Source: Psammoneis japonica (taxonomy: Eukaryota). Taken from it: 64,000 bases of DNA. The DNA lies in the NCBI GenBank assembly GCA_008632985.1, contig QPGO01000305.1, positions 1 to 64,000 on the forward strand. Reading direction: 5' to 3'. Positions within the stretch are counted from its first letter, which is position 1. The number at the start of each line of letters is the position of its first letter. The notes beneath the pieces were generated by a model. It worked only from the letters and a program-made list of their open reading frames with translations. It made no database searches and had not been told where the DNA came from. The position numbers were made by a program, and so were the translations under genes. Positions 1 through 24,920 of the stretch are shown here, in pieces.

Positions 1-804
1 GGAATTAGACGACGGACGAGTTGGGACCCGATTTGGTGGACAGGTGTTTGCAGTTGATTGGCATTTGTCGTTGGGCGATCGAGTTGGGCCGTGTCGACAT
101 CTTGCATGAAGTTTCCATTCTCTCTCAGTGTCAAGCCAACCCAAGGAAAGGGCACCTCGAAGCGTTGCACCATGTGTTCGCGCATGAAGAAGCATTTGAA
201 TGTCGGTCGCATTGGTTTTGACCCGAAGATGCCTGTGATTGACGAATCTGTTTTCAATTCCACTGCGGACTGGACGGAGTTTTACGGGGACGTTGAGGAG
301 GAGTTGCCGCCACGGATGCCCAAGCCCCGTGGCAACCCGGCAAACACATCTGCATTTGTTGACGCCAACCATGCGGGAAACGTTGTTGCTCGCAGATCAC
401 ACAGCGGGATTTTGACATTCGTGAACAATGCTCCGATCATTTGGTTTAGCAAGCGGCAGAACACAGTGGAGTCGGCGACGTTTGGCAGCGAATTGGTTGC
501 GATGCGCATTTGCAAGGAGTTGATTGTTGCTTTGCGTTACAAACTTCGCATGTTTGGAGCACCGATTGAAGGCCCTGCCAATGCATTTTGCGACAACCGC
601 GGCGTGGTGAAGAACGTCAGTGTTCCGGAATCTGTGTTGCACAAGAAGCATGATGCTGTCAACTGTCATTTGGTTCGTGAAGCAGTTGCGGCTGGGGTCA
701 TTCGCGTCAGGAAGGAGGACACGGACATGAATTTGGCAGATTTGTTTGCGAAGGTGACGACGGGAGAGCGGCATTGGAAACTTTGCTCTTGCATCTTTTG
801 GCAG
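1..804 (+). pseudogene. Ty1/Copia (CoDi-like, family A) pol 3' end: RT C-terminus plus RNase H, frameshifted and TpA-mutated
   Basis: Translation shows LQLIGICRWAIELGRVDI, FVDANHAGNVVARRSHSG, WFSKRQNTVESATFGSE, LRYKLRMFG, FCDNRGVV and NLADLFAK. Frameshift near 185. The probable original stop reads CAG at 802-804. Confidence 0.95.
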
Positions 805-910
805 AGCCCCGACACCAAGGCCAGACACCTGCAGCTTGCGCCCACGTGTTTCGGCCTCCCAAGCCAGCATTGCTGGTGGTCTGAATTTGGGTTTTGTGTT
901 TGCCTCTCTA

Positions 911-1125
911 TGAGAGGATGTTCTGGTTTGACGAATCGGCGTTGCACTTGCCGTTTCGCGGGGACCAAGTAAATCTGGGTGGAGCGGTCAGTCCCTGGTC
1001 CGGGGCTGATGCGCACGATCTGGTGGTTTGTTCTTTCCCACAATCTCACACGATCTAATCGACACAGGGTTCTCTTTGGTTTGTCACTGCTGCTCTTGGG
1101 CTCAAGGTGCTGTCATTGCCCCATG
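911..1125 (+). mobile_element. Polypurine tract plus start of Copia 3' LTR (truncated)
   Basis: TGAGAGGA (911-918) is followed by TG at 919. The same arrangement occurs at 12260-12251 (-). Shared motifs GACGAATCGG, ATCTAATC and CTCAAGGTG with the LTRs of the 12-19 kb element. Right end approximate. Confidence 0.7.
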
Positions 1126-1146
1126 CGGCTGCATCGGCATTCATTC

Positions 1147-1990
1147 GGCAATCGCTTGATCCGTTTGTTCAGCTCTCTGAAATCATCAACAAAGCGTGCC
1201 GTTAATCTTTCTTCGGCATGACAAATGATGGAGCTGCCCATTGGGATCGGTTGACGCATTTGAGAACACCGACACGTGCCAGGCGTTCTACTTCTTTACG
1301 CAGCGCAGCTTTGCACGCACGAGGCACTTCACACGGACGAGCGTGGCATGGTTCCACACCCTCCTTGAGTTGGACATGGCAGGGTTCTCCCTTCCATTCT
1401 CCTGATGTCCCATCAAACAAGGACTCATGGCGTTTCAACAGTGCCAAAAGGTCGTTTTGTTGAACTGCAGAAAGTCCCATTGCCCCTCGCGTCATGTCCT
1501 CGAGGCAGGCCGGCGCGTGCTCAGCGTCCAAAATGCGCGAAATCCGGTCGGTTTCCGAAGACAAGGCTTCTGGATCTTGAAGATAGAAGGAGGTTTCCAC
1601 CGCAGCATCTGCGTGCCTCATTGGCACTTCTCCATTGACNATGGCCACTCTGTCATCTGTTTGGAGAAGACAATGTCAATGCCTTGTGTCTCCAGAATGT
1701 CACGTCCAACAATCACATCGCACTTGCCCTGCTTTCTGTTGTGTGCGTGGACGGCATGCTCAAGTTCTGCAGCTTCGGACAACTCTGGCAACCGAAATTA
1801 ACGGTGCAGTCGTCAGACGTGCCAGACGAGCCTGCCACCGTAGCCCAGTTTGTCTCAGCCGTTGAATGGCTTCGCAGACGTTTGCAGTGTCGACTGTCGA
1901 GTGGAGCACTGCTGGCGCCACTGTCTGGCAGTGTCTTGATGGTTTGAGTCTTGCCCTTGCCATGTTCAGCATTCACAGCTGCAAACAGAT
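1147..1990 (-). pseudogene. Ty3/Gypsy pol fragment: aspartic protease plus RT N-terminus
   Basis: TLPDSGASS (L-DSGA protease motif), then LKEGVEPCHARPCEVP..LRKEVERL..GVL..SQWAAPSFVMPKKD, then after a frameshift ARFVDDFRELNKRIKR. Truncated near 1147. Confidence 0.9.
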
Positions 1991-2119
1991 TGGAGCAAGA
2001 TGAGTCTTTTTAACTCGTTTGCGGGATTGGCCTGCAACACGTGTACGATGGCAATTCAGTTGTTCATTCACACATTCATCCAATGCATTGAAACTGCCTG
2101 CATCGTGTCGGCCCCCTTC

Positions 2120-3194
2120 TCAGGCATCCGAGTCTTCGGAACCACTTAAGTTGAGGTCGCGGAAGTGATCAAGCTCCTCCTCGCGGGCCTTGCGCTTTTT
2201 CTGAGCGTTGGCAAAGTGCTCCTCGACCTTCGATCCGATGAGAGCATTAACATCTTCCTCATTCCGAGGTTTTGTGTTGGGCTTGCCGCCTCCGTTGTTG
2301 GAATGTCCAGTCTTGACACGTTTCACGTGGTGCTTGAGCTGACGGCAATCTTCCGCATCATGTCCACAGTAGTCCCGTGTGGCATGCACGACTTCTGGGT
2401 GTTCCGCTGGGTGTGATCAACGACTCAGGATTGTCCATTCTACGTCCCCGCTTGCGTGGAACCTCAGTGTGTTGGTCCTGGTTACCTTCGGTGAGCTCGA
2501 CCTGCTCGATGCGCTCGCAGAACTGTGCAAATTCGGCGACAGCATGCGCCAACGGGTCAAAATTCTGTAGCGTCATGAACTTCTGCCATGCGTTCGGCAC
2601 ACCGCACTCGAACATGTCGCACAGTTCGTCATTGGGTGATGGTGCCGGTGTTTCTCCATCCTCCGTCACGGGTGGAAACTGAGAGATGTGGCCGTTAATT
2701 TCAACAGCCCTCGCGACGCAGTCACGAGTGGAAACCTCTGCGGGCTTGCGCATGAAGCGCCGCAGACAACGCTTCTGCAATGGCACCGCCCCATGTGGGA
2801 AGATGCTTTCCTTTAGCTTCGCGACGCATGCTGTGCACGCAGCGTTGGTTTGGGATGCCTGCTTGTCAGCGGCATTGTCAAATGACATCAGAGCATCGCC
2901 CTGCAGTGGGTCACGCATGAGGGCAAATTTCACTGGCCCGGTCGTGATGTTTTGTCCTTCGTGCACGCGATCCACGTTGCACAGAAAGATTGGGAGTGTC
3001 TCGCATGTAGCCGTAGAAAGGTGCGGGATGCCCATCTCATGCGTTGGACTGTCCGGATCAGCAGGGTTGTTACGCAGCTTGAACGTCTGGCACTTGCCCT
3101 GCTGCAGCTCTTTCTTCTCCGGCCGTGCGAACGGAATCGGCGGCTCAATCCGCTTCTTCATGGTCGTTTTGAGATTTGTCGGTCCCACCAACAT
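2120..3194 (-). pseudogene. Gypsy gag, frameshifted
   Basis: PPIPF..FKLRNNPADPDSPTHE..LQGDAL..QKRCLRRFMRKP..GVPNAWQ..FCERIE, then a Cys/His knuckle-like CMPHG/CGHDAEDC. Lies upstream of the Gypsy PR-RT on the same strand. Confidence 0.8.
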
Positions 3195-3989
3195 TTCGTA
3201 GTTTCGTTTCTGTAGATTTCGTCACCTCGCACAACATGCGGGAGCAATGTTGCTGTGCCCTGTGCGTGCACAAGGCGCTGAAAAAGAAGATGTGTTGCGA
3301 CTTTGTCGTTGTGAAAATTGTGAGCTAGTTTAGAGCAGAGAAAATGGGATCGTGCGAATGGGGAATCTTGCCAAATCCCTGTTCGTTCGCATTTGGATCA
3401 CATCAAATCGATCGTGCGTTCGCATTGTGGATCGTGCGAATCACGCCATGCACAAGTGATGTCATCGTGTGGAATCACGCTGCCATCGTGGGCCAGACGA
3501 CGGGCCAGTGTGCTTCATGTGCGGATGCTCTCTTAGCATCCTTCTGGAATTGCCTGAGATCTAGAGCCACGCCCTCCTGTGGTCGTGCTTCCCAGGTGCG
3601 TGTCAACAACACTGCGTTGCCACGTGCAAGAGGCTTGTGCACGGTCTCGCCGTGTTGTCCAGTGGCGAGGCATGCTGCACTCGCCCTCACCATGAAGACC
3701 TTGGCATTGAAGTCTTCTCTGCAGACAGGCCCAAGTCCCGCTCTGGGCACTCAACTGTCAGCTTGTGCTCTGCACAAAACCCTTGGACACTGCTTGGCTC
3801 CAATTGGTGCCCAGAGGACTCAGCTGAAGAAAATCTTGCACAAGATGGCACAATGCACTGAATTCTGTTGAGAGCATCCAGGTTCCGACCTCAGAGACAA
3901 CCGCATTTTTCAACTTGGCAAAACGCCGTTGTCCGCGCCATTTTCATCGGGCAGGTTCTTGTTGTTCTGCAGCTCTGTCGTGACCAGCA

Positions 3990-4820
3990 AAATGGCCAAG
4001 GGCACAAAATCAAAAAGGACAAAAAATGTCTGTTGAGGGCGCCAAATCACAAAGGGCACAAACCAGGCAGGGGCACAAAATTGCTGAAGTCACAAAATGA
4101 CTGAGGGCGCAAAATGGCGGCTGAGGGCACAAAGCTGCCAAGGGCAAAAAATCAGAAAGGGTCCAAAATGGCAAAGGGCACAAAACCACAATGGCCAAAA
4201 ATTGCTGAAGGCGCAAAATCATGAGGGGCGCCAAATGCGGCTGAGGGCCCAAAACCAAAAAAGGCACAAAATGGACAAGGGCACACAGCCACAAAGTGCG
4301 CAAAATGGCAAGGGCACAAAACCACAAAAAGCACAAAATGCTCAAGGGCACAAAAAAAGGAAAGGGCGCAAAACAGCCAAGGGCACAAAAAGGTCAAGGG
4401 CACAAAGTCAAGAATTGCGCAACATGGCTGAGGGCCCAAAACCAAAAAAGGCACAAAATGGCCAAGGGCACAAAGTCACAAAGGGTGCAAAATGGCGAGG
4501 GCACAAAACCACAAAAAGCACAAAATGCTCAAGGGCACAAAAAAAGGAAAGGGCACAAAACAGCCGAGGGCACAAAAAGGTCAAGGGCACAAAGTCAAGA
4601 ATTGCGCAACATGGCTGAGGGCCCAAAACCAAAAAAGGCACAAAATGGCCAAGGGCACAAAGTCACAAAGGGCACAAAATGGCCAAGGGCACAAAGCCAC
4701 GAGATGGGGCAAAGTGCTCGAGGGCACAAAAAAAGGAAGGGCTCAAAACAGCCAAGGGCACAAAAAGGTCAAGGGTGCAAAGTCAAGAATTGCGCGACAT
4801 GACTGGGGGCACAAAGCCTC
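3990..4820 (+). repeat. Degenerate AGGGCACAAA(A) minisatellite with ~187-bp higher-order period
   Basis: Dozens of GGGCACAAA/GGGCGCAAA/GGGTGCAAA cores. The block AATTGCGCAACATGGCTGAGGGCCCAAAACC recurs at ~4413 and ~4600. Also present at 25540-26050 and 26665-27510. Confidence 0.9.
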
Positions 4821-4947
4821 AAAGGTGCCCCCAGCGCCAAACACTTGTGCCACAAATCTTGTTTGATCAGTGCCCTGCCAGTGGGCTGTGTCTCTTCAGT
4901 GCCCCCCTGCAACATGTGGCGAGATTGTTCTCGATTTAAAGACCACC

Positions 4948-5026
4948 GAAAATGCGAAAATGCGAAAATGCGAAAATGCGAAAATGCGAAAATGCGAAAA
5001 TGCGAAAATGCGAAAATGTGAAAATG
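4948..5026 (+). repeat. (GAAAATGC)n octamer microsatellite
   Basis: About 10 tandem units. A diverged copy (GAAAATGC/GAAAATGG) lies at 27638-27749. Confidence 0.95.
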
Positions 5027-7729
5027 ATGTGACGCACCAAACTCCATTGAGAGTGTCCAGATTCCGACCTCAGAGACAATCGCATTTTTCCATTTGGCGA
5101 AACGCCATTGTCCGTGCTGTCTTGCGTGTTGCTTTGAGCCACAGAGCCAGAAAACACTCCCAAAAAATTGCCCTGCAGGGCAAACAAAAGAGCGGCGTAG
5201 AAAGAGAAACTGCACGCAAATTGAACGGCTGCAAACATGTGAAGCCTCGGCAAAACACACAGCACAAATGGCAGTGCATGAGGTCGGTTGCGATGCAACA
5301 GAAGCGACATTGTCAATGCGAACCTTCAGCAAGAATTTTTGCCATGATCTGCCCATGCGGGCCTTGACGTTCTTGAGCTTGTCTCGCAGAAGATGATGTG
5401 ACAGCGCCGAGCTCCATTGAGAGCATCCAGGTTCCGACCTCAGAGATGACCGCATTTTTCAGTTTGGCAAAATGCCGTTGTCCGCGCCACTTTGCGCGCC
5501 ACTTTGAGTGGCGAGCCAGAGAACACTCCAAAAAACTGCTCTGCAGGGCAAAGCACACTGAGTCTGCATGGATTTGGGTTGTTCCAGGCCACGTGGAAAG
5601 CCCAGTTTGGTTTCACCGTGCAGCTTCTCAAAGTTCCCCGGCATCACCACCTTTTGCCCTGTTTTTCCGCGGGAAGGGTGAGCTCCCGGGGAGCCGCCAC
5701 GAATTTCCGTTCGTCGCGTGTGTGCTTGACACGCGAACAAAAAACAACACATTGGCAATTCCCCGTGCTTCCCTTCTCGCACATTTCCGCGCATTCAGTG
5801 CACCGGCATGTGCGGAGCCACACACCAGACGCGCAACAATCAACCGTCGACCAACGGCTGCAGCCAAAAATGGGCAACACGCCATGGAGTGTTCGCGTCC
5901 CATCCACGACGGCTCTTGTCAAACAAAAATGACACCAGCCAATCCAGTGAGTGAGATTGCGATCGACAGTGCAAAACAAAAATGAGCAGAAGTGTGGCAG
6001 ATGATGTTGAGCAGAAAACCAGTGCACTGATCGTTGCACTCATTTTTCTTTCCTGCGGTCACAAATGTGAGCCATGCGGCGTTTGTGGCAAAGTTCAAGG
6101 CAAAAGTGGATCGACAGTGCAAAACAAAAATGAGCAGAAGTGTGGCAGATGATGTTGAGCAGAAAACCAGTGCACTGATCGCTGCACTCATTTTTCTTTC
6201 CTGCGGTCACAAATGTGAGCCATGCAGCGTTTGCGGCAAAGTTCAAGGCAAAAGTGGAGCCACACATGGCTGACAAAAATGTGGCGGATTGAGTGGTCAT
6301 GGTTTTTGTTTCAACTGACACATCTCATGTGCAGAATGAAGCGGGTCATTGGGAATCACTCCGTTGTCGTGCAGCCACAAATGCAAACCATGAGGCGTCT
6401 GGAGCGAAGGCTGAGGCAAAAGCAGAGCCTCACAAGGTCAGTGAAAATGTGGCGGATTGATCGACAATGTTCGTTCTTCCCTTTGACCTGTCTCATGCAC
6501 AGAATGCAGTGCATCATTTTTTCCTTCTTGTGTCGTGTGGCCACAAATGCAAACCACAACGGCTCCAGAGCAAAGGCCAAGGCAAAAACAGAGCCACATG
6601 TGAGCAGTGTCAACATGTGTGATTTGATGGTGAAGCTCATTCTTCCCTTGCTCTGCCACAAGGGGGCGCTTTGTGTCGATTTGTCGATGCACCCGTCATG
6701 GTCGTGCATCGTTTTTTCTGTGCGCCGGTCGCCACGAGGATGAAAGCACATCCGCCTGTCCACAATTGCCACACATCACCGCACTCCATTCGTTTTTTGT
6801 TCCCCTCCCCTGAGCCCTTTTGGTTGTTCCTTCCCGCCAAATTGCCCTCATTTCACGGGAATTCCCCAAAAGGGCAAGGCAGCTCCCCCTTGCCTTTGCC
6901 ATTTTGGGGAATCCCCAAAAGGGCAAAACCAAACCAAGGTGGAAAGTGAACGGGCCAAAAACTCCGGCGGACCCACTCAAACACATTCAACAACTGACTG
7001 ACAACAGATCGGTTGGCTGGTTTCCCAAAGCGCCACTTGTGTTGTGCCCTTCCCCAGCTGCTCTCCAGCTGGCGCCGTGGAATGCAGTCGCTCAATTTAG
7101 ATTGTGTCTGCAACGTCATTTGCAACAAATGTGGCTGCCGCTTTTCACACATTGTCCGCCAAACAGGTTTTGGCCCCAGCTCATGTGTCTCAGCGCAACC
7201 CGCCACGTGGCTTTCCTCATCCCCCAACCCGCTGCCCACCTCCTCCACTTTCCTGCCACGCTCTGCCACAATCTTCTTGCAAAAAGCCTCCCTCTTGCGT
7301 TTCCTGGGTGCACTCCCTCCCGCATCTCCATTCTTGGAGTTCCCTGTCGTGAAGTGCTCCAGGCATCTCATGCACTTTCATGCAAACAAGCCACATGTTC
7401 CCAGGTTGCAAGCTGCCCCACAGCCAAAAGAAGCAATCTTTGCCTTTGGAGTCACCATGATGCGCTGGTCTGCCAAATCAAACTCAGCATCGCCGTGGAC
7501 AGTGGGGGAGAAATGTTGTCAAAACTGCGCGATGATGTGTCCGAGCTCTTGAGAGCTCACCCAGCTCAAGACGTCATGGCTCCAAGTCGCCGTGTTTGTC
7601 TTGAACTCTTCCTGATGCTGTGTCTGTGACTTGGCTTCGTCGCTGAATTGCCGTGGCCACCGCACTTTAGAGATGACATTCTAGACAAGAAAAAGTGTCT
7701 CTGGGGTGCCTCATGACAACAGAGACCCC

Positions 7730-8725
7730 ACAGAACAAAAGAACAGCGCAGAAAGAGAAATTGCACGTAAATTGAACAGCTGCAAACACATGAAGCCTCG
7801 ACAAAACACACAGCACGAGGCTGGTTGTGAAGCAACAGAAGCAACATTGTCAATGCGAACCTTCAGCAAGAATTTTCGCCACAATCTGCCCATGTGAGCC
7901 TGGGCGCTCTTGAGCTCATCTTGCACAAGATGGCACAACGAACCGAACTCTGTTGAGAGCATCCAGGTTCCGACCTCAGAGACAATCGCATTTTTCAACT
8001 TGGCAAAACGCCATTGTCCATGCCGTTTTGTGTGCCATTTTGAGCCGCGAGCCAGAGAACACTCCCAAAAACTGTTCTGCAGGGCAAAGCGTGCTGAGCC
8101 CACACAGATTTGGGTTGCACCAGGCCACGTAGAAAGCGAGCGGGCCAAAAACTCCAGCGCGCCCACTCAAACACATTCGACAACTGACTGACAACAGATC
8201 GGTTGTCTGGCTTCCCAAAGCGCCACTTGTGTTGTGCCCTTCCCCGGTTGCTCTCCAGCTGGCACCGTGGAGCGCAGTCGCTCAATTTGGATTGTGCCTG
8301 CAACATCATTTGCAACAAATGTGACTGCCACTTTTCACACATTCTCTGCCAAACAGGTGTTGGCTCCAGCTCATGTGTCTGGGTCCAACCCCCCATGTGG
8401 CATTCCTCATCCCCCAACCCACTGCCCCCCTCCCCCGCTTTCCTGTCACGCTCTGCCACAGTCTTCCTGCAAAAATCCACCCTCTTGCATTTCCTGGGTG
8501 CACTCCCTTCCGCATCTCCATTCTTGGAGTTCCCTGCCATGAAGTGCTTCAGGCATCTCGCGCACTTTCTCTCCTTTGCCCCACGTTCTTCATCGGGCAG
8601 GTTCTTGTTGTTCTGCAGCTCTGTCGTGACCAGCAAAATGGCCAAGGGCACAAAATCAAAAAGGACAAAAAATGTCTGTTGAGGGCGCCAAATCACAAAG
8701 AGCACAAACCAGGCAGGGGCACAAA
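7730..8725 (+). repeat. Rearranged partial re-copy of pieces of the 3.7-7.5 kb unit
   Basis: Segments match ~5180-5600, ~6945-7370 and ~3943-4080. Confidence 0.8.
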
Positions 8726-9159
8726 CAACGCACGTCATCTCTCCTCAATGACCTGTGCTCTCCCTGACAAGAACTTTCTCCCCAAGCATTTGCTTGCCGC
8801 TCGACAGAAAGCAGTGCGGCTCACATTGTCAAATGTGGGTGCAGCTGAAACACAAAACAACTCATCTTGTGTGGCCCACAAGCTCTTGGCAGTGGAGGAT
8901 TTTGACTGCCAGACATCAAACAAGGAGTTGCTCAGTTGCGGGTGCTGTCCAAGCATTCCAGAGGTGTCGCACATCTTCATCTGGGAGAGGATCAACCCAA
9001 CAAATTGCTGCACATTGCAGTCTCATGAATCCAACTGAACTTGGGGACAGGCGTGAGCTTCTTGTGGGATGCAGATGCTGTCCTCCTGCACATGGAATCG
9101 CGTTGGTTTGCTTCCGTCAGTGCATTCTTGCGCAGAATTCAAGGCAAACTCATGTTGTC

Positions 9160-10897
9160 TCAAGAAAAACAAACGTGTCGTTTCAAAAAAAAAGTCACCC
9201 CAAGGAAAACAAACGTGTCATTTCGAGGAAAGCCAACGTGCTGTTTCAAGGAAAACAAACATGTCGTTAAAAAAAAAAAAAACATGTCGTTTCAAAGAAA
9301 AAAACATGTCTTTTCAAGGAAAACAAACATGTCATTTCAAGGAAAACAAACGTGTCTTTTCAAGGAAAACAAACATGTCTTTTCAAGGAAAGCAAACACG
9401 TCGTTTCAAGGAAACAAACATTCCACCTCTTGGAGAGCATCTCGGGTGTGACAGTTGATGCACGACTCAAGGTCGACAGTGCATGCACCCGTCTTCACTC
9501 AGCACAATCCTGGTGGACATCCAGAGTGTGCGCTGTTGGGGTCAAACTTGCAAGGGGTGTCGTGGACAGTCGGCTCACTTGCTCGCAGTTGGTTGGGGCA
9601 CAGCAGGGTGTCAGTCATTGTGTCTCTGAAAAAAAAAGCCTGGTGGACTGGCAGCAGGTGTGGCTGTCCACTGGTTTGATTGACCCACATGGCAGCAGCC
9701 ACGCAAATGGGGACATTCCTCATTGGTGCACACTCTTCAGAGCAAGGATGCACTGCAACAGCGAGGCCAACATCAGAGGACAAAATTGGACCCAGCAGCA
9801 CATGCATCAGTGTGTGAGTCCAAGTCATTGGTTGCCTCACCATGTGGTTGTCCAGCAAATGACAAAGAGACGTGTGTGTTCTTTGGGAGTCACCTGGATG
9901 AATGCACAGTGCCAGCAGGTGCAGCAACAGTCGGCTCCATGTCTTTTCATGGAAAACAAACGTGTCGTTTCAAGGAAAACAAACGTGTCGTTTCAAGGAA
10001 AACAAACATGTGAAACAAACGTGTTGTTTCAAGGAAAACAAACATGTCTTTTCAAGGAAAACAAACATGTTGTTTCAAGGAAAACAAACATGTCTTTTTA
10101 ACACCGCAAAACAAACATGTTGTTTCAACAAAAACAAACATGTTTTTTCAAGAAAAACAAACATGTTTTTTCAAGAAAAACAAACATGTGTTTTTTAAGA
10201 AAAACAAACAAGTTTTTTTAAGAAAAACAAACTTGTCTTTACAAGGAAAACCAACATGTCGTTTCAAGGAAAACAAACGTGTTGTTTCAACAAAAACAAA
10301 CATGTTGTTTCAAGGAAAACAAACATGTCTTTTCAAGGAAAACATGTCATTTCAAGGAAAACCAACATGTTGTTTCAAGGAAAACAAATGTGTTGTTTTA
10401 AGGAAAACAAGCATGTTGTTTCAAAGAAAACAAACTTGTCGTTTCAAGGAAAACAAACACGTCATTTCAAGAAAACAAACATGTCGTTTCAACGAAAACA
10501 AACATGTTTTTTCAAGAAAAACAAACATGTGTTTTTTAAGAAAAACAAACAAGTTTTTTTAAGAAAAACAAACATGTCTTCACAAGGAAAACAAACATGT
10601 CGTTTCAAGGAAAACAAATGTGTTGTTTCAACAAAAACAAACATGTTGTTTCAAGGAAAACAAACATGTCTTTTCAAGGAAAACAAACATGTCCTTTCAA
10701 GGAAAACAAACATGTCGTTTCAAAAAAAAACAAACATGTCTTTTCAAGGAAAACAAACATGTCATTTCAAGGAAAACAAACATGTCGTTTCAACCAAAAC
10801 AAACATGTGAAACAAACATGTGGTTTCAAGGAAAACAAGCATGTCTTTTCAAGGAAAACAAACATGTTGTTTCAAGGAAAACAAACATGTCTTTTTA
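9160..10897 (+). repeat. 23-bp satellite arrays (9160-9420 and 9940-10897) flanking a Copia fragment
   Basis: Tandem TTTCAAGGAAAACAAACATGTCN. Three monomers translate as the 23-aa pseudo-repeat FQGKQTCLFKENKHVFSRKTNMS. Confidence 0.97.
9421..9940 (-). mobile_element. Copia family B fragments (protease region joined to integrase start)
   Basis: Reverse-complement match to ~48425-48835 and ~49245-49350 of the family B element. Confidence 0.85.
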
Positions 10898-11011
10898 ACA
10901 CCGCATCCACCGATTCACCAGGCAAAATTGGCAAAAGTCGGGTGTGGCAAAAAGGGTGCATTTGGTCAAAATTGATCATTGAGTGCAAATGGTGGTGTCT
11001 TTGGGGTCCCT

Positions 11012-11320
11012 TCAGTGAGCCGAACATGCACATTTCTCATTTGACCATCACAGGTCCATCTTGTGGGGGGTGCCAAAACGTCGTGCTTTGACGCGTCTCG
11101 AGGATCAATCGTCACATGATGTCTGCAGTTGTTGAGGTTGTGTGAAATTGAAAATTCACACATTGAAGCACGACATTTTGACACCCCCCACAAGACGGAC
11201 CTGCAGTTGTTGAGGTTGTGTGAAATTGAAAATTCGCACATTGAAGCACGACATTTTGACACCCCCCACAAGATGGACCTGTGATGGTCAAATGAGAAAT
11301 GTGCATGTTCGGCTCACTGA
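11012..11320. mobile_element. ~310-bp fold-back/MITE-like element with ~77-bp inverted termini
   Basis: TCAGTGAGCCGAACATGCACATTTCTCATTTGACCATCACAGGTCCATCTTGTGGGGG.. at 11012 is mirrored and ends at 11320. Internal ~79-bp tandem duplication. No clear TSD. Confidence 0.7.
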
Positions 11321-11655
11321 GCCACGCAAGCATCAGCATTGTGGCTCTTGGCATTCTCCACCAGAATCTTTGCACGCTGCTGGCATGCTTTGAAATCTGC
11401 TGGCTTCGTCAGATTTCCATCCACTGCGCTCTCACCAGTCTCCATCCCAGTGTCGAAAACACCCTTGAGAAAGTCAGAAACCTTCTTGGTCTCAGCCACT
11501 GGCTCGCGGAGCTCAGACAAGTCATTGCAAGCCTTCTGATGGCATTGCGTGCACTGGTCAAAAGCAAAATGACCCCATCTGGTGCACTTTGCGGCGGCAA
11601 TCTGTGCACGGGCACGGTTCTTGTGGGTGGTGGCAGCAGCCGATCCTTCCACCTG
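11321..11655 (-). mobile_element. Copia family B gag fragment
   Basis: FAFDQCTQCHQKACNDLSELREPVAETKKVSDFLKG matches ~47930-48125. Confidence 0.85.
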
Positions 11656-11659
11656 CCCA

Positions 11660-12047
11660 CGTGTCTTTTCAAGGAAAACAAACATGTCTTTTCATGGAAA
11701 ACAAACATGTTTTTTCAAAGAAAACAAACATGTCGAACAAACATCTCATTTTTGAGAAAAACAAACATGTCATTTCAAGAAAAACAGACATGTCTTTTCA
11801 AGGAAAACAAACATGTCATTTCAAAGAAAACAAACATGTCTTTTCAAGGAAAACAAACATGTCTTTTCAAGGAAAACAAACATGTCATTTCAAGGAAAAC
11901 AAACATGTTGTCTTGACAAAAACAAACATGTTGTTTCAAGGAAAGAAAACGTGCAAGTTCTTTCAAGGAAAACAAACATGTCGTTTCAAGGAAAACAAAC
12001 ATGTCTTTTCAAGGAAAACAAACATGTCCTTTCAAGGAAAACAAACC
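11660..12047 (+). repeat. 23-bp satellite array
   Basis: Tandem monomers abutting the truncated 3' LTR. Confidence 0.95.
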
Positions 12048-12252
12048 GAACAAATCTTGATGCAATGAAAGGACAAGCACGACACCTTGAGTCCAAATGG
12101 AAAGTGGCGACACTGTCAATGCGAACCCAAACCTGATTAGATTGTGAGCGTGTCGCTGCAGCACCACTCGATCCATGTGTCTCAACCAACCACCAATTGC
12201 AACATGGCCCTCCATCCAGATTTGCAGCACCGATTCGTCTGAACATGTGACA
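12048..12252 (-). repeat. 3' LTR (truncated)
   Basis: Starts with TG right after the PPT TGAGAGGA and matches 19101-19278. Confidence 0.9.
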
Positions 12253-12367
12253 TCCTCTCACAGAGAGGCAAACCACAAGAACCCAAATTAAACCACCAGA
12301 CACACTGGCTTGGGAGGCGACGATGCATGGGCGCAAGCCACAGGCACCTGGCCTTGGTGTCGGGACA

Positions 12368-14110
12368 TTGCCAAAAAATGCACAAGCAAAGCTTCCATCA
12401 CCGCTCTCCTGCAACCACCTTTGCAAGTGGATCAGCCAAGTTTGTTTCCGTGTCCTCCTTGCCAACACAAACAATTCCCGCTGCGACCGCTTCTCACACA
12501 ACATGGTGGTTGATGGCATTGTGCTTCTTGTGCAAAACCGACTCAGGTGCACTTGCATTCTTTGCAACACCGCGATCATCACAAAAGATGCTTGCTGGTC
12601 CTTCAAGGGGAACCCCAAACATGCGAAGCTTGCAACGCAAGGCAACAATCAATTCCTTGCAAGTCCGCATGCAGCCAATTCACTTCCAAACATTGCTGAT
12701 TCCACCGCATTCTGCTGCTTGCTGAACCACACCACTGGCGCGTCATTGACGAATGTCAGAATCCCGCCATGCGACCTGCGAGTGACAACATTCCCTGCAT
12801 GGTTGGCGTCAACAAATGCACGGATGTTTGCCAGATCACCACGAGGCTTCGGTGCCCGTGGCGGCAGTTCCTCCTCGACATTCCCATAAAACTTGGTCCA
12901 GTCTGCATTCGAATTGAAAACAGATTCATCAATCACTGGTTCCTTTGGATCAAATCCGATGCGTCTGACGTTCTGGTGTTTCTTCACATGCGCAAATGCA
13001 CGGTGCAATGCCTCAAGATGTCCTTTCCTCGGATTGGCTTGACATTGAGGCAGGATTGAAACCTCATGCAAGACATCGATGTGACCCAACTCGATCGCCC
13101 AACGACAAATCCCTGTCAGCTGCAAATGCCTGTCCACCAAGCGGGGCCTAACTCGTCCATCACGTCCAGTTCCGGTTTGCATTTTGGGGGCAGTGGATCC
13201 TTTGCACTGTTCTTCAGAACCTCTCGTTGCCATCTTTATCCAACAGGCCTTCCACAGTCTCAATTGCCAATTTGACACATGACCTCGGTGAACTCGCCCA
13301 GATTGTGCACCCATCCTGAGTCTGAACCTTCTCAACATCAGCTCCAAGACAAACTTCTGGCTCTCCTTCGCTGCCGGGCTTCACGGTGTGGTGTTCACCT
13401 GCTGCAGCAACAATGGACTTCCCTTGATGGGAAATGATTGGCACATCATCGACATGAACCAAAAGCATTTCATGACACTCGTGCCCATCCTCACAAGTCA
13501 CCGCACGCAAGCAGACATCATCTGGGTCCGCTCTCGTTGATTTGAAGCCTGAGTCACGTAAGACCGATGACAGTGCAGACCTCCAAGAGTGTCCCGACCT
13601 CTTCAAGCCACACAATGCCCGAGCAACAACAAGTGCCTTTCCTTCACACTCGCCGCATTCCTTTCCGCCTTCAAACCACATCTTTTCTGTGCACGGTGCA
13701 TTGAGACAAGCATTCTCCAGATCAATTGCCGCAATGTCGACACCATTCAAGGCTGCTGACAAGAATCCAAGTCGCACACTTTCTCTGGAAACCACGCCAG
13801 AGCAAGTGATCGATGCCGGGGCCTCTGTCGTGTGTCCGCCAGCTACAAACCTTGCCTTTCTGGTGAAATCCATTTCAATGTTGAACACCATGTGGCACCT
13901 GATCTCCTGACAACCACGCAAAGTTGTGCTCTTGCCTTCCCGGATGACTTGAGGGGTTTCAGCTTGTGCTCGCGCCATGCCACCTTCACCTTTGCCATCT
14001 CCTCATTGATTGCACGAGCCCAACAATCTGTCCCCGTTTCCTGATCAATCCGCAAAGCATCCTCCGTGGACTTGGGTGATCAGATCCCAAACTTGTGAGT
14101 CGTGCGCCAG
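12368..14110 (-). pseudogene. Copia reverse transcriptase plus RNase H
   Basis: FTRKARFVAGGH, VVSRESVR, DLENACLNAPC, ARALCGLKRSG, LLVHVDD (13445-13456), FVDANHAGNVVTRRSH. Multiple frameshifts. Probable ex-stop CAA at 12368-12370. Confidence 0.95.
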
Positions 14111-16170
14111 TGCTTCTTCTTGACCTTGGATGCAATGCGATTCCGTTTGCGTGGGACATGTGTGGCCCACCAAGCAAAAGCAGGTTCCTCCGTCAACCTG
14201 TTTGCAACAGCATGCTCAGCAACTTCAATGGGGTTAGAGTCCTTTGGATCTTTGAGTTTGACCCAAGATGAGCTGCCATCCTTCCATCCAACCAATGACT
14301 TCCATCCTTTTGTTGTGATCGTCTTCTTCTCCTTCCCGTCAGCGGTTTGTGCGGTGCCATCAGCAATCGACACCGCATCGTCACTCCTCTCGTGGTCCTG
14401 CATCTCGTGCAAGATGGTGCGCTGGTTGCCCTCGCTGTCGACCTGAGCAAACATGTTCTCGGCAATGACATTGGCTGCACGCTCATCTGTGGTTCCGTCG
14501 GCACACTCCACTTCGCATTCGCGAGTGTCAAACAATGGGTTTTGATGCCAAGTCCCAATTGGACGCCCATCCTGTCCTCTTGCACGTTTCGTTACAACAC
14601 CACGTCGCTCGCTGTCGGTTCTGATGTCAAACACAAGTTCCATTCCCAGGTGTTGATCGATTGCCTGCTCGTCATCGTCGTCTGGTGCTCGCCGGGTGAC
14701 AGCATGTTGCCATGTTCCTCATCCTCTGGCGTGATGCCGCCCTCATGTTCCACACCGAGGTTGCCGTCAATTGCAAGATGTCCAACACGAATGCGGGTGC
14801 AGCTTCATCGCCCTTTAAGACAAAGTCAGTGTCGTCCAATCGCTTCTCCAGCTGCTCATTAAAGTTGTCGACCTCAACGCGAACATCCGGTTGCACCACA
14901 TCAGCCTGTGTCACGTGCTTGACCGATGTTTTGGAGACAATCTTCCCACTTTCCGCAATGATCCAACAGCACATGTCCGAGCCAACTTTGTGTGAGACAC
15001 CAAGCCACCGTCCAAGCCTTCGAGGATCGTCAGTTGCACTCAGCTTGTTGGGCCTGTCCCACCACCACACCACATCGTAGAAACCAAAATCCAAATGCTT
15101 GCCTGTCGATGCATTCCAGACGCAGGTGGGAATCCGTGTGACATTGGGCCCGCAGACTTCTGCGTGCGAACTCCGCAGTGAAATTGTGCAGCAATTAAAA
15201 TGTCAATGATCGCCAACAGAAAATGAGGCAATTTTGCGAACGCACAAACTCGCACATGATTGAAGTGCATCATTTTTTACTCAGCCAGTTGCATTCTTCA
15301 GACATTGAAGAATGCAACTGGCACACTGTTGTTTCTGCATGTTTGTTGTACAAAACGTCTGGGGCTTCACAAAACAGCGAGTCTGGACAATGTTTTTTAA
15401 ATGTCACATGTGGAAATCTGCGTGCGAAACATGCAACGGATGACAAAAATCATTGTTGTCACACGTCAGCACTGCGAGCTCCCACCCAGGGCTGGAACGC
15501 GTCTGTCTCTGGTGTCTGCCCAGTGACCTCTTCATGTCCAGTCCTCTTGTCCCTGCCTCTGGCCATGCGCGACACTAATTCCGACTTGCAAACAAGACCA
15601 AAATCCCATGACCGCTTTGGCACCTTCTTCTTCGTCATCCGCAGCCGCCAACGTTTGGCTGAGAAACCAATTTTGCACTCCGCTGCCTGGTTCTGGCTCT
15701 TCCAACCCTGCTCTGATGTTCTCAATTGCACTCTCACACGTCGTGCGTGTCTCACAAATTCGGCGCTCCTTCCAGTGAACTCTCCTGCCCCGCCCGACAT
15801 GGGACATTCTGGTGCACCCACGTCGTCTGTGAATTCAACAAGAGACAAACCTGCCTCCGACCTGGCAGTCATCGGCACAACCTTCACGAATTTGCCCTGA
15901 GCACAGACATTGGCACACGTGTCACTGAGCAAAGACTTCACCTTGGACATCAAAGTGTCCACAAACCATGTTCCTTTCAGACGCTTCCGATGCAAGTCAA
16001 GATGATCCACCCTCACTCTTCGTGACATCGGCTGGGTCGCCGTTCACACGCCATGCTGAGTTGTTGCATTGAGAGCATCTTTTGCCGTTTCTAAACCGAC
16101 ACTCCATTTTCGGGCCAGCTCTTCAGCGTCAACCTTCGAGTGCCGATCCTTGCTGTGTAAATCTTTGACT
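14111..16170 (-). pseudogene. Copia integrase and INT-RT linker, interrupted by a MITE
   Basis: ELARKWSVGLETAK..TTQHGV, WFVDTL, QNQAAE, EEVTGQTPE|LDFGFYDVVWWWD, LGRWLGVSHKVGSDMC, TTKGWK.LVGWKDGSSSW. Confidence 0.9.
15108..15503. mobile_element. ~396-bp TIR MITE inserted in Copia integrase
   Basis: Termini GATGCATTCCAG../..CTGGAACGCGTC. TSD TGTC at 15104-15107 and 15504-15507. Removing it restores the frame TPETGKHLDFGFYD. Confidence 0.9.
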
Positions 16171-16399
16171 GCCCTCTGCCTCTTGTCCACGTCATCGCGA
16201 CATGTGCAAGCCACGTTCACTGACCTGATGAGCCTGTGGCAAAACGATTGAAGTTGATGGATGGGAGACACAGACGACAGTTGCATTTCGACCTCGCCCC
16301 AGCGTGCTGCTTGGGACTTTGCCTTCTCGCTCCTCAATTCCGAGACCTGTTCTTGTCGCATGCCAGAGGTCAATGATCGAATGGCGAGCATCTCCGCCT

Positions 16400-16900
16400 G
16401 CTCTCTAGTGCGCTCTGGCAAGCCCATGTCCATCTGTGCTGGATCCCATGCATCACCTGTCAACAGCATGACCAGCAAGTTCTGTGCTTCCCAATCCGTC
16501 AGAACACGAGACTTGAAAGACACAATTGTCCCCGTGGTGTTGAAAGGGATGAAAGCTTCGTCAGCTTCAGTGCCAAATCCGTTTCGGGTGTCGCAAGGGT
16601 TGTCGTGTGCGGGTGTGTTGTGTGCATGGAGTTGGTTGGGATTCAAAAGTGAGTGTTCCATGTCGGTCCCAAACCAGAGCATTTGATCACCAACCAGCAA
16701 ATGTTCACGAGTCGTTTCCGGATCTGTCCATGCGGTGCAACAATGTGCCACAGGAATCTGTTTGATCGGCTCACAAGAGTCCAGAAATGGATGTACCTCG
16801 CACACTTCATTTGTCATCTCCATGAGCTTCCAGTTCACTTCAGCGCAACAAGTGTCCGCATGAGCATCACATTCATTTCGAGCGACAAACCCAGGCATCG
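16400..16900 (-). pseudogene. Copia aspartic protease region
   Basis: ARNECDAHADTCCAEVNW..LWFG..HSLLNPNQL, the CoDi-type D-x-HADT motif. Confidence 0.85.
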
Positions 16901-17099
16901 TCAAATTTGTCATCTGTGCAGAACTCGTCGATCGGATCACACGTTTTGATGTCACGGCAATGTGCCTCTTTGTTGCCTTTCCTTTGAAACGAGACATTGG
17001 GTGGGGTTCAGTCAACAGCAAGAAGAGTGGCACAAGCAAAAACGACAAGTGTGCCAAATGCGCCAACACTCCAGCAGCTGTTGCCACCCCAAGGAGTCA

Positions 17100-18638
17100 G
17101 GTGGAACCATTGCAGGCTCCCCAACCGAAGGTGCGTCCATTGCATCCACCGCGATCCCGGTCAGCGCCGCGACCACGCCCGCTGCTCCTTTGCTCCTGAT
17201 CCTGTTGTTGGGTTTGGCCTTGGCCATCTTGACAGACTTGGGCTTCAGCCACATGCCTGCCACCCCCATTGCGTCCTTGTCGACCTGCGGGAGACCCACG
17301 GCCACCACCGCGTCCATGACCCATTCGTTCGCAAGCTTGGAACACGCAGCTCATGCCTCCATTGTGCTGTGACTTTTCCCATTCTTGAGCGCTAAAGCTC
17401 CTTGTGGGGTCGGATGCATCGACTCCATTGATCATCGTAGTGTGGTCGCCACCTCTGCCTTCACGGCCACCACCACGTCCGCGTCCACCCCCACGTCCAA
17501 ATCTTCCTCCACGACGCGACCTCGATAAAAACCGCGGCCACCGCCGCCACCACGGCTCATTTCAGAAATCTTGCGCTTCGAGCAATGCCGGGCTTCCAAC
17601 TGAGCACCTGCATGCAAACGAGAGACTTCGGATGAGAAATGAGCACATGCCCCCGCGAAGTCATGAGGGTGCTGACTGCTGATGACAGCCGTTGCTGCAA
17701 TGAGACGAGTGTCATCCGTTCGGATCCCTTTCAGAAGAATGTCAACTTTCTGTCATTCAGATTTGCGGTCATCTGGTGATTTGTTCAAAGCAGTGAAAGC
17801 ACTGGCAAGTTTCTCATTGAACTTTTCGAATGGGAGCGATCCTTCCTTTTTATGAAACAAGGTTTCAACAGTTGCCGCCGCCAGATGGATGCGCTTGCTC
17901 AACTCGCCCTGTCCATTGCAATGGTCAACCCATGCATTGAATGCTCCATGTCCATCTTCTGTCGCGCCAAACGGTTCGATCCATGCCCATCCTGCCATGT
18001 CGACCAAGTGTTCCTTCAACACACGGCAAACGCTGCGGTTGTCCTCGTCACATGCGGCGCCATTCAATGGCATCTGGTGCGTGCGCTGTTGTTGAGCATC
18101 CGTGAATGCAGCCGGAGCTGGCATTGTCCTTACGACATGGCAAAGGGGTTCTTTCAACACGCCAAATTTCTGTGCCAAGAGATTCAGGAAAGCATCTTTG
18201 CACACATCGAAGTCATCGGGCTCAAACTTTACGAGACCGCTTGCCAACACGTCCGAATCCGTGCGCTCCTTTTCAACACGCCTGCCATTCCGGGCCGCAG
18301 CCACAGCTGCCACATTGAAGTCTGCCGCAACCAATGGCTGATTCCATTTGAGCAAATCCTGGCACCACCATGCATCACCTGTGAGTTCTTGATCTGAATG
18401 GTCCCAAGAGCCACACGTCCGTCGGCCACCGTGCGACAAGATGCCCTCTGCGCCATGTCTTCCACATCGTGGTCACTCTCCATCACTGTGATGTTTTCCA
18501 AAGTCGCAACCCTTTGTGGAAGACCAACCTCGCCCTTGCGTTCTGGTCAGCAACACCACAAACTTGCAAAACTGCATCAATGTCAGCTGCCGCGGCCAAC
18601 GCCGCAAGTGCTGCTGCTGGTGCTGCCGCTGCTGCCAT
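17100..18638 (-). pseudogene. Copia gag
   Basis: Start MAAAAAPAAA (ATG at 18638). FLNLLAQKFGVLKEPL, DNRSVCRVLK, HCNGQGELSKR, then an RGG-rich segment. Confidence 0.8.
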
Positions 18639-19100
18639 CCTGCAACAGAGAAAGGGCACAAAGGTCCTGCACCGGGAACATGTGGCTGTGAGTCTGCATG
18701 GTCATGATGGCTGCACTTTCTCTGTGTTGTGATGACAGGGTTCAAAAAGCCACCTGACGTCAGGGTGATCAGTCCTGTGTCGTTCATGTCAACCGACATT
18801 GTTGAGCACATGCTCGGGCATGTCGCCCAATGCCGCAGTCCCTTCACACCCGCTGCGTGTGTGAGGACAGTGACCATCTTTGCGAGCATTGCCGTTGCAA
18901 GCTGTTTTTGTGGACATCACAACAAGCAACACGAGATGCATCATCGTGCGCATCAACCCGAATTCTGACGCATCACGTGCAGTTCAGCGCCGTTTCTGCA
19001 GCTGCACATTCCATGCAAACAACACAACAAACAATCGTCCATGACAAGTTGCACTCGAAACCATTTTGCTCTGTCTTTTTCGTCTTGGCTCTGACAAAGT

Positions 19101-19278
19101 GAACAAATCTCGATGCAATGAAAGGACAAGAACGACACCTTGAGTCCAAATGGAAAGTGGCAACACTGTCAATGCGAGCCCAAACCTGATTAGATTGTGA
19201 GAGTGTTGCTGCAGCACCACTCGATCCATGTGTCTCAACCAATCACCAATTGCAACATGGCCCTCCATCCAGATTTGC
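19101..19278 (-). repeat. 5' LTR segment matching the 3' LTR (probably extends toward ~18900)
   Basis: Direct repeat of 12048-12225. Confidence 0.85.
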
Positions 19279-19282
19279 TCGA

Positions 19283-21035
19283 AGCATGTTGTTTCAAAAA
19301 AAAACAAACATGTCTTTTCAAGGAAAACAAACATGTCGTTTCAAGAAAAACAAACATGTTGTTTCAAGGAAAACAAACATGTCGTTTCAAGGAAAACAAA
19401 CATGTTTTTTCAAGGAAAACAAACACGTCGTTTCAAGAAAAACAAACACATCATTTCAAGGAAAACAAACGTGTTGTTTCCAGGAAAACAAACATGTGTT
19501 TTTAAAGAAAACAAACATGTCTTTTCAAGGAAAACAAAGGTGTCATTTCAAGGAAAACAAACATGTCCTTTTGAGGAAAACAAACAGCGCTCACTCATTT
19601 TGAAGAAAAACAAACATGTTGTTTCCAGGAAAACAAACATGTGTTTTCAAGGAAAACAAACATGTCTTTTCAAGGAAAACAAAGGTGTCTTTTCAAGGAA
19701 AACAAACATGTCCTTTTGAGGAAAACAAACAGCGTTCACTCATTTTGAGGAAAAACAAACATGTCTTTTCAAGAAAAACAAACATGTCTTTTCAAAGAAA
19801 ACAAACATGTCTTTTCAAAGAAAACAAACATGTCTTTTCAAAGAAAACAAACATGTCGTTTCAAGGAAAACAAACATGTCTTTTCATGGAAAACAAATGT
19901 GTCGTTTCAAGGAAAACAAACATGTCTTTTCATGGAAAACAAATGTGTTGTTTCAAGGAAAACAAACATTTCTTTTCAAGGAAAACAAACATGTCTTTTC
20001 AAAGAAAACAAACATGTCTTTTCAAGGAAAACAAAAATGTCTTTTCAAGGAAAACAAACATGTTGTTTCAAGGAAAACAAACATGTCGTTTCAAGGAAAA
20101 CAAACATGTCGTTTCAAGGAAAACAAACATGTCATTTCAAAGAAAACAAACATGTCTTTTCAAGTGAAACAAACGTGTTGTTTCAAAGAAAACAAACATG
20201 TCTTTTCAAGGAAGGAAAACAAACATGTTGTTTCAAGGAAAACAAGTGCGTCTTTTTGACAAAAACAAACATGTCTTTTCAAGAAAAACAAACAACTCGG
20301 AGCACGCCAACAAAGCCTTGATGACAGTTGGCCGTTTTGGCACTCAACTCAGGCAAGCCGTGGAAAAACAAACAGCATTCACTCATTTTGAAGAAAAACA
20401 AACATGTTGTTTCCAGGAAAACAAACATGTCTTTTCAAGGAAAACAAACATGTCTTTTCAAGGAAAACAAAGGTGTCTTTTCAAGGAAAACAAACATGTC
20501 CTTTTGAGGAAAACAAACAGCGTTCACTCATTTTGAAGAAAAACAAACATGTCTTTTCAAGAAAAACAAACATGTCTTTTCAAAGAAAACAAACATGTCT
20601 TTTCAAAGAAAACAAACATGTCATTTCAAGGAAAACAAACATGTCTTTTCATGGAAAACAAATGTGTTGTTTCAAGGAAAACAAACATGTCTTTTCATGG
20701 AAAACAAATGTGTTGTTTCAAGGAAAACAAACATGTCTTTTCAAGGAAAACAAACATGTCTTTTCAAGGAAAACAAACATGTTGTTTCAAGGAAAACAAA
20801 CATGTCGTTTCAAGGAAAACAAACATGTCTTTTCAAGGAAAACAAACATTTCATTTCAAAGAAAACAAACAAGTCTTTTCAAGGAAAACAAACATGTCTT
20901 TTCAAGTGAAACAAACGTGTTGTTTCAAAGAAAACAAACATGTCTTTTCAAGGAAGGAAAACAAACATGTTGTTTCAAGGAAAACAAGTGCGTCTTTTTG
21001 ACAAAAACAAACATGTCTTTTCAAGAAAAACAAAC
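19283..21035 (+). repeat. 23-bp satellite array with internal ~740-bp duplication
   Basis: Tandem monomers. The block ending ..AACTCGGAGCACGCCAACAAAGCC occurs at ~20295 and ~21037. Confidence 0.95.
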
Positions 21036-24690: not shown

Positions 24691-24920
24691 AACAGCGGTC
24701 TCTGCTGCAAGCTGCAGCGCGCAGAAGCAGAAGAGACAAAGAGAGTGTTCCGAAAGATTGACGCTTTCAAGGAGAAAGCAGACTCAAGCATCAAGACTGT
24801 TCAAGCGCCAGCTGGTCCTCAAGACAATCTGAAGACACTCAGACATTGGATGGCAGCAGATGCTCCAGAGGATGCAGCAGCAGCACTTTGGACACGGAGT
24901 CAAAATCATTTTGGACAGGC

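Follow-up and report, generated by a model that had tools for sequence, protein, structure and literature searches.

Mutational genome defences are known as systems of cytosine deamination, with fungal repeat-induced point mutation (RIP) and APOBEC in animals. In ascomycetes, RIP changes CpA/TpG into TpA and makes AT-rich, TpA-rich DNA. In animals, APOBEC3 acts on retroviral cDNA and ADAR hyperediting on repeat RNA. Both restrict retroelements by deamination, and both act on a single strand, with G>A or A>G changes when read along the sense strand. Here we describe a stretch of 64,000 nucleotides (the window, positions 1 to 64,000) that contains two dead Copia retrotransposons with long terminal repeats (LTRs), called copy 1 and copy 2, together with a 23-bp satellite. 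The dinucleotide TA has been almost completely lost from the window, and the products are TG and CA.

The closest described system is that of Bigelowiella natans (Mettrop et al., bioRxiv 10.64898/2026.01.13.699255). According to the available part of that preprint, 231 of the 302 nuclear de novo point mutations in B. natans mutation-accumulation lines are located in integrated giant-virus and virophage regions. Of these 231, A>G and T>C changes make up 230, each of them on TpA and producing TpG or CpA. The rate is about 6e-7 per site per generation, and a subset of the lines is affected. Reverse-transcriptase and DDE domains are over-represented in TpA-depleted coding sequences, and TpA-poor 1-kb windows form 124 clusters at a threshold of ≤0.43. 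The authors propose an ADAT2-like adenosine deaminase (bioRxiv 10.64898/2026.01.13.699255). The words ‘retrotransposon’, ‘LTR’, ‘satellite’, ‘trinucleotide’ and ‘flanking’ are absent from the main text in its available part. Our literature searches found no report of a TpA>TpG/CpA signature besides this preprint. Another article (PMC13746701), in the part available, concerns AC:GT repeats only.

The window shares several features with TpA hypermutation in B. natans. The target is the same TpA, the products are TpG or CpA depending on the strand, TpA is lost while CpA and TpG are gained, and the affected DNA is foreign or selfish. The window differs from B. natans in its much stronger depletion, with an odds ratio of 0.04 across 64 kb compared to 0.45 in their nucleocytoplasmic large DNA virus region. 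The window also shows LTR retrotransposons and a satellite, a flank preference and LTR evidence on timing, which that report does not. We conclude that the window is probably a further instance of the TpA hypermutation described once, here at saturation.

Like RIP, the changes are strand-symmetric, dinucleotide-specific transitions at the DNA level that kill repeated or selfish DNA and leave a dinucleotide footprint. The direction is reversed, however, with TpA destroyed, CpA/TpG created and GC rising. RIP itself was rejected as a candidate, with TpA at 0.04 and a GC content of about 0.5 in the Copia copies. Like the targets of APOBEC3 and ADAR, the retroelement copies carry clustered transitions, but in the window the two directions are equally frequent and DNA outside retroelements has changed too. 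Decay of methylated CpG by deamination also yields TG and CA, and is a second, weaker process in this window. Its target is CG and not TA, and it cannot remove Tyr codons or TA.

We consider it likely that a host process acting on chromosomal double-stranded DNA converts TA into TG or CA across the region. Each TA would be converted by one transition on either strand with equal probability. CG would be a rare outcome because a converted site is no longer a target. Nearly every tyrosine (Tyr) codon would become a cysteine (Cys) or histidine (His) codon, because Tyr is encoded only by TAY (Y, pyrimidine). Across no less than 64 kb of DNA made up of satellite and transposons, the process would have run nearly to its end.

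The extent of the depletion is seen in the following features.

1–64000, no strand: nearly TA-free, repeat-rich domain, with 160 TA compared to about 4,560 expected from base composition
1–3600, no strand: less depleted, possible edge of the domain, with a TA odds ratio of 0.12–0.18, CG 0.9, and 32 of the 160 TA
9151–63509, both orientations: 23-bp satellite in about 23 arrays, for example 19301–21036, 30336–31873 and 53032–55053 (repeat analysis)

Over the window the odds ratios are 0.04 for TA, 1.61 for TG, 1.55 for CA and 0.67 for CG, and the TA odds ratio of the 2-kb bins reaches 0.18 at most. As a control, TA odds ratios were taken from 36 metagenomic loci of this Copia clade; they lie at 0.51–0.78 (median 0.645), with TG and CA near 1.0–1.4, compared to a TA value of 0.07 for the two copies here. 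The depletion is not a property of the Copia clade. The satellite occupies 18,066 bases of the window and contains 37 TA, some of which are plainly new C>T changes. Its unit is CATGTCGTTTCAAGGAAAACAAA, with variants at its CG, and the region it fills may be centromeric or other heterochromatin. Beyond the satellite, the window is composed of duplicated blocks, a second Copia-like fragment and sequence of no recognisable family. Satellite, retroelement and unclassified DNA are affected alike. Throughout, TA is the target and is changed to TG or CA, each site is hit once, and the two strands behave alike. We infer that the process works on chromosomal DNA and is aimed at silenced or selfish sequences.

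Downstream of the copy 1 LTR, positions 1172–3600 show partial TA depletion with CpG kept (0.9), and belong to no recognised family. Its DNA may be younger, or the segment may form the border of the mutated domain.

Both Copia copies are collinear with a 1385-aa Copia polyprotein, P0003 (tblastn). Their parts are as follows.

12–801, + strand: copy 1, C-terminal RNase H part of Pol, P0003 residues 1122–1385 (tblastn, codon table)
947–1171, + strand: 3′ LTR of copy 1, approximate (alignments)
12041–19278, − strand: copy 2, complete LTR element within the 23-bp satellite (tblastn, codon table, LTR pair)
12041–12225, − strand: 3′ LTR of copy 2 (direct repeat, 185 bp)
12371–16901, − strand: Pol of copy 2, P0003 residues 14–1385 in order (tblastn)
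13217–14002, − strand: RVT_2 domain (PF07727) in copy 2 (Pfam, E 5e-10, 39.8 bits compared to a cut-off of 31.6)
19094–19278, − strand: 5′ LTR of copy 2 (direct repeat, 185 bp)

Copy 1 is truncated at the window start and has a single frameshift near 184; its odds ratios are 0.07 for TA and 1.08 for CG. Its LTR is strongly diverged from that of copy 2, with the end ...TTGTTCA and a CTAATC motif retained. With RVT_2, a collinear Pol and direct LTRs, copy 2 is a Ty1/copia element. Its LTRs are 95–96% identical, and the outer side of each adjoins satellite. The sense-strand stretch after its 5′ LTR may be a primer binding site of the initiator-tRNA type, which it resembles. Alignment of both LTR borders gave no clear target-site duplication at its ends. 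Copy 2 is dead, with stops, frameshifts and lost Tyr codons. The closest named relatives of both copies are proteins of the diatoms Fragilaria crotonensis, Thalassiosira oceanica and Ditylum brightwellii, and most of the others are unnamed metagenomic proteins. Identity to the metagenomic and diatom relatives is 58–66%, and protein homologue searches found no relative of the copies above 66%. These relatives have a collinear Pol with RVT_2 and are intact with normal TA, whereas the copies in the window are dead and TA-free.

The preliminary description of this DNA was concerned with two orthologous pairs of codons in the copies.

45–47, + strand: TGT in copy 1, in a column with Tyr in 73% and phenylalanine (Phe) in 27% (codon table, 45 relatives)
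13126–13128, − strand: CAT in copy 2, orthologous to 45–47 (codon table)
664–666, + strand: TGT in copy 1, in a column with Tyr in 93% and Phe in 7% (codon table, 45 relatives)
12506–12508, − strand: CAC in copy 2, orthologous to 664–666 (codon table)

It read TGT opposite CAT in the first pair and TGT opposite CAC in the second, and the codons are exactly as it stated. It took Tyr as the family state at both places. Tyr columns were defined from an alignment of 45 full-length Copia relatives, and this profile supports an ancestral TAY. Cys, His or arginine (Arg) at either of the two columns is found in none of the 45. The description explained each pair by an ancestral TA that was hit twice independently, once on each strand. 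This explanation is borne out by the relatives, which have Tyr and not Arg, and by an even split between the strands in the copies. The observation understated the scale, as the signal covers the whole 64 kb and not two codons. The idea that flanks fix the direction of change was rejected, since identical flanks gave opposite outcomes at both columns.

Loss of Tyr codons is selective. We used a strict set of 23 columns with Tyr in at least 70% of relatives, and a wider set of 35 columns at a 50% threshold. On the − strand of the window, copy 2 reads TGY at 9, CAY at 10, TAY at 2 and CGT at 1 of the 23 strict columns (codon table). The remaining one is a frame artefact, which reads TGC in the nucleotide alignment. 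Other conserved residues of copy 2 are mostly kept: His at 16 of 18, tryptophan (Trp) at 20 of 21, Phe at 20 of 21, Cys at 4 of 5 and glutamine (Gln) at 8 of 8 columns. Taken together, His, Trp, Phe, Cys and Gln are retained at 68 of 73 columns, compared to 2 of 23 for Tyr (Fisher P = 2e-14). The wider set gives 13 Cys, 11 His, 2 Tyr, 1 Arg (CGT), 3 valine (Val), 2 Phe, 2 Trp and 1 artefact. In copy 1, the Tyr columns hold 3 Cys (TGT), 2 His (CAY) and 2 retained Tyr (TAC), and one column has Trp in both copies.

The preliminary description had suggested counting TG and CA outcomes relative to the element sense strand. This comparison, made on copies 1 and 2, gave even outcomes. In copy 2, 13 changes from Tyr to Cys (TA>TG) stand beside 11 from Tyr to His (TA>CA; binomial P = 0.84), and in copy 1 there are 3 and 2, respectively. 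The order of Cys and His outcomes along copy 2 is random, with 12 runs compared to 12.9 expected; strand-coordinated clusters of conversions were rejected by this runs test. Two adjacent Tyr codons of copy 2, at 13477 and 13474, were converted in opposite directions. The CG outcome is rare, with CGT at 1 of the 25 altered Tyr codons of copy 2.

The copies also appear to have been hit separately. Of the 785 columns of aligned coding dinucleotides, 21 show a TG/CA conflict (12 + 9), and no other double difference is seen more than 4 times. Shared CpG sites that decayed in both copies are expected to give about 6.6 conflicts (Poisson P = 6e-6), an estimate derived from the shared and singly decayed CpG sites between the copies (22, 29 and 10). 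Five Tyr columns are altered in copy 1 as well as in copy 2; their outcomes agree in 3 and conflict in 2, which is what independent hits in random directions give. Copy 1 and copy 2 would have been hit independently after their lineages diverged.

Changes outside Tyr codons point to the same ancestral state. Reverting TG or CA to TA in copy 2 restores the consensus residue at 16 TG and 24 CA sites, which include changes of Val to alanine, leucine to serine or proline, and isoleucine to threonine or methionine. Reverting them to CG restores it at 12 + 3 sites. With 40 sites restored by TA compared to 15 by CG, the TG/CA sites go back to an ancestral TA. CpG decay is present in copy 2 but is a minor process, because TA restores the consensus at more sites than CG does.

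The TA sites that survive have distinct flanks. Outside the satellite, with both strands counted symmetrically, the base 5′ of the T of surviving TA between 3601 and 64000 is T in 83 cases, C in 48, G in 42 and A in 9; between 1 and 3600, the counts are T 24, C 21, G 17 and A 2. The flanks of residual TA are symmetric, with A on the 5′ side in 6 cases compared to T on the 3′ side in 5, and T on the 5′ side in 93 compared to A on the 3′ side in 82. TTAA is the commonest surviving context and accounts for 56 of the 160 TA. Of the four Tyr codons that survive in the two copies, three are preceded by T and one by C. A 5′ A is rare at survivors, and TG and CA have nearly even flanks, so that ATA/TAT appear to be removed most efficiently. 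This suggests that the process prefers TAT/ATA and that TTAA is relatively resistant. The chemistry could be deamination of adenine at 5′-TA-3′, with the product read as G, or modification of thymine at TA followed by mispairing. The TA dinucleotide is palindromic, so the two chemistries are indistinguishable, flank dependence included.

Removal of TA may still be continuing. Between six non-redundant young duplicates in the window (88–97% identical), transitions number 381 and transversions 114. The top double difference is CA/TG, with 33 cases compared to 6 for the next. A recent mutation spectrum was obtained from one repeat family.

34832–36222, + strand: 1.3-kb repeat with 5 copies at 95–98% identity

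The five copies carry 62 private substitutions. C>T changes number 19 at CpG (112 sites), 8 at CpC and CpT (320 sites) and 1 at CpA (275 sites). The C>T changes at CpA, which create TA, are about seven-fold below expectation (Poisson P = 0.008, Fisher P = 0.04). At low power, this points to a removal of new TA that is still going on.

The copy 2 family is abundant in sequencing run X1, where 4,014 contig pieces match it at 80% identity or more. The search of sequencing runs listed one DNA run with this sequence, X1, and no RNA run, which has no bearing on expression. Of these pieces, 608 are at least 99% identical to copy 2, 1,007 are 95–99%, 1,460 are 90–95% and 939 are below 90%. Differences of the X1 contigs from copy 2 are strand-symmetric transitions, with 150 A>G, 157 T>C, 185 C>T and 204 G>A, and 10–14 of each transversion.

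The LTRs of copy 2 bear on when the TA sites were lost. In each LTR, TG and CA together number 40–41 compared to 24 expected, TA 1 compared to 11–12, and CG 4–7 compared to about 10. This composition suggests roughly 7–10 TA-derived sites per LTR. The two LTRs differ at 8–9 positions, which are CpG decays, single transitions and transversions, with no TG/CA conflict. If the hits had occurred independently after insertion, the chance of finding zero conflicts would be about 0.008–0.001. Because conflicts are absent even though the LTRs are TA-poor and TG/CA-rich, either their TA loss predates the duplication of the LTRs, or the LTRs have been homogenised. The copy 1 LTR is too diverged to be an outgroup for them, with 2 informative columns. 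The preliminary description had favoured mutation of genomic double-stranded DNA after insertion. Its DNA-level part is supported, as the satellite and the surrounding sequence are equally TA-free and the same TpA changes arise de novo in chromosomal DNA of B. natans (bioRxiv 10.64898/2026.01.13.699255). The concordant LTRs speak against the part about insertion. Hits on copy 2 once it had inserted are not secured, and for its LTRs they are contradicted.

Three readings fit the LTRs. Active lineages may be purged of dispensable TA beforehand by repeated low-dose exposure, so that only constrained TA, above all in Tyr codons, would be left to destroy after silencing. A dead, mutated template may have been copied in trans. 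The RNA and the minus-strand cDNA may have been edited before integration. In copy 1, 2 of the 3 surviving coding TA are Tyr codons, both in the resistant T-TA context. These survivors lean towards prior purging of active lineages, tempered by their resistant context.

The sole TA kept in both copy 2 LTRs (12138 and 19191) and the TA at 1056 in the copy 1 LTR lie in the same CTAATC motif. This TA may be a constrained or resistant site.

An alternative to the chromosomal process is hypermutation during retrotransposition, which we regard as unlikely. A deaminase would act on TA/UA in the genomic RNA and on the minus-strand cDNA before the LTRs are completed. Hits on RNA would give sense TA>TG and hits on cDNA sense TA>CA, and insertions would arrive dead with concordant LTRs. 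The copy 2 LTRs, concordant though TA-poor and TG/CA-rich, are as this alternative predicts, and the patterns in copy 1 and copy 2 are independent. Sequential editing of RNA and then cDNA also predicts rare CG outcomes, which are found at 1 of 25 altered Tyr codons. It leaves unexplained the equal loss of TA from the 23-bp satellite and all other sequence of the window, as well as the apparent continuing removal in young duplicates. The concordance of the LTRs can be explained otherwise, as active lineages may shed neutral TA over many residence periods. In addition, the only documented case of the TA signature, in the available part of its report, arose in integrated, non-retroelement DNA (bioRxiv 10.64898/2026.01.13.699255). 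A simpler RNA-based alternative is A-to-I editing of sense transcripts by an ADAR-type enzyme, fixed by reverse transcription. Its targets would be retroelements, and a preference of ADARs for a 5′ U/T neighbour is stated in the available part of the same report (bioRxiv 10.64898/2026.01.13.699255). Sense editing yields only TA>TG, whereas TA>CA occurs 11 times beside 13 in copy 2 and 2 times beside 3 in copy 1, and non-retroelement DNA is equally depleted. The strand symmetry refutes it as the sole cause, in agreement with the preliminary description, which had disfavoured it, and we give this alternative almost no weight.

Two further alternatives do not involve the element’s life cycle. Decay of methylated CpG would turn CGY Arg codons into TGY Cys and CAY His codons and could be a source of TG/CA pairs. 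The window CG odds ratio of 0.67, the 29 + 10 single differences between the copies with CG opposite TG or CA, and the 12 places among the best 40 X1 differences where the window has TG/CA and the others CG all indicate such decay. As an account of the Tyr columns it is extremely improbable. At the two columns only Tyr or Phe is found, and Arg is absent there from all 45 relatives; conserved Arg CGN codons of copy 2 are mostly intact, with 23 of 46 Arg columns still CGN; double decay predicts 6.6 conflicts where 21 are seen; and CpG decay leaves TA untouched. The other alternative is a sequencing artefact in which a modified base at TA is misread as TG or CA. Strand-dependent miscalls at a palindromic modified site could give either product. 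This is very unlikely. Run X1, which may be from the same sample, contains 41% of sampled 31-mers of 9001–19000 and has the 608 pieces at 99% identity or more. Some Tyr codons and the 160 TA sites read normally, and the copies carry stops, frameshifts and ordinary CpG decay, as truly old dead copies do. Mixed miscalls would also enrich CG, which is depleted here.

Several observations weigh against conversion of TA in chromosomal DNA by a host process, or narrow what the window can say about it. CpG decay is at work here too (CG odds ratio 0.67), and it likewise yields TG and CA. In the young duplicates, single differences number 75 for CG/TG and 102 for CG/CA, and part of the 33 conflicts may be CpG-derived. 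The concordance of the copy 2 LTRs is another such point, since under a chromosomal process that acts purely after insertion, about half of the converted sites should be in conflict. Codon-by-codon comparison was made between copies 1 and 2, the only ones that overlap within the window, and the second Copia-like family has 4 Tyr columns, too few for a symmetry test. States per site were compared with X1 contigs at the best 40 of 788 variant places. Among these 40, there are 2 TG/CA conflicts, 12 places with TG/CA in the window and CG in the others, 2 with TG in the window and TA in the others, and 1 with TA in the window and CA in the others. A few loose ends of X1 contigs beside an element resembling a miniature inverted-repeat transposable element (MITE) contain ordinary TA. 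That the rest of the genome is TA-normal may be conjectured from these few contig ends.

If a host process does convert TA in chromosomal DNA, it is a defence with a chemistry different from cytosine deamination. The window shows its end-state, tens of kilobases without TA and hence without TAA/TAG stops and Tyr codons. It widens the range of targets beyond viral inserts to LTR retrotransposons and satellites. Strand symmetry, the single hit per site, the flank preference and an LTR-based clock of events before and after insertion are testable handles. If the window comes from B. natans, it would be an extreme example of the clusters described there; otherwise the process would occur in a second lineage. 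It is possible, though we doubt the two together, that the window comes from an organism other than B. natans and that a TpA-directed DNA mutator is a widespread eukaryotic defence that makes heterochromatic domains TA-free. If this were true, retroelements would co-evolve with the mutator. Active lineages would lose dispensable TA, and their LTRs would be TA-free at insertion. Only the TAY Tyr codons would be kept, and would become the point where each silenced copy is killed. The preference seen at survivors, with TAT lost first and TTAA last, would be the footprint of the enzyme and would fit an ADAT/TadA-like deaminase. The natural tRNA target of ADAT/TadA is A34, which follows U33.

The remaining features of the window are as follows.

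15104–15506, no strand: nested MITE-like insertion of 400 bp that splits Pol of copy 2 (gap between P0003 residues 475 and 477)
24445–25416, + strand: open reading frame (ORF) with an HA domain (helicase-associated, PF03457; Pfam, E 7e-8)
48472–50021, + strand: second, distant Copia-like fragment (27–29% identity to P0003)
3676–6483 and 26352–29216; 36288–39812 and 60118–63616: multi-kb segmental duplications at 89–90% identity
3988–4815 and 26662–27508: tandem arrays of a GGGCACAAAA-like 17-bp motif in 187–204-bp higher-order units

The MITE-like element has 24-nt terminal arms that are 75% complementary, a perfect 17-nt internal hairpin and 4 TA. Other contigs of run X1 skip it, with joints that omit 400–407 bases. 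It belongs to a very high-copy family, because its summed X1 depth is about 7e4–1e5, far above the value of about 2e3 for Copia. In the second Copia-like fragment lies a stop-free frame of 437 aa that has 2,732 relatives, the best at E 1e-85, and lacks a Pfam match. The fragment’s 4 conserved Tyr columns read CAC, CAT, TAC and TTT, that is 2 His, no Cys, 1 kept and 1 Phe. The HA-domain ORF has no homologue at E ≤0.001 in a word-indexed search. Pfam scans of 14 and then 79 ORFs found nothing beyond RVT_2 and this one HA domain. Together with the Copia relatives, the HA-domain ORF hints weakly at a diatom-like genome.

No AC/GT microsatellites, which could be converted (TA)n, are present within the 64-kb window. 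Over its six frames there are 145 stop-free frames of at least 150 aa, because TAA and TAG have been lost. Gene finders would call spurious ORFs in such TA-free regions in all six frames. Several 1.3-kb units occur in the window at 95–98% identity. These units and the segmental duplications indicate that DNA already free of TA was copied again within the region. The GGGCACAAAA-like tandem arrays are strongly A-rich on the + strand, with an AT skew of 0.37.

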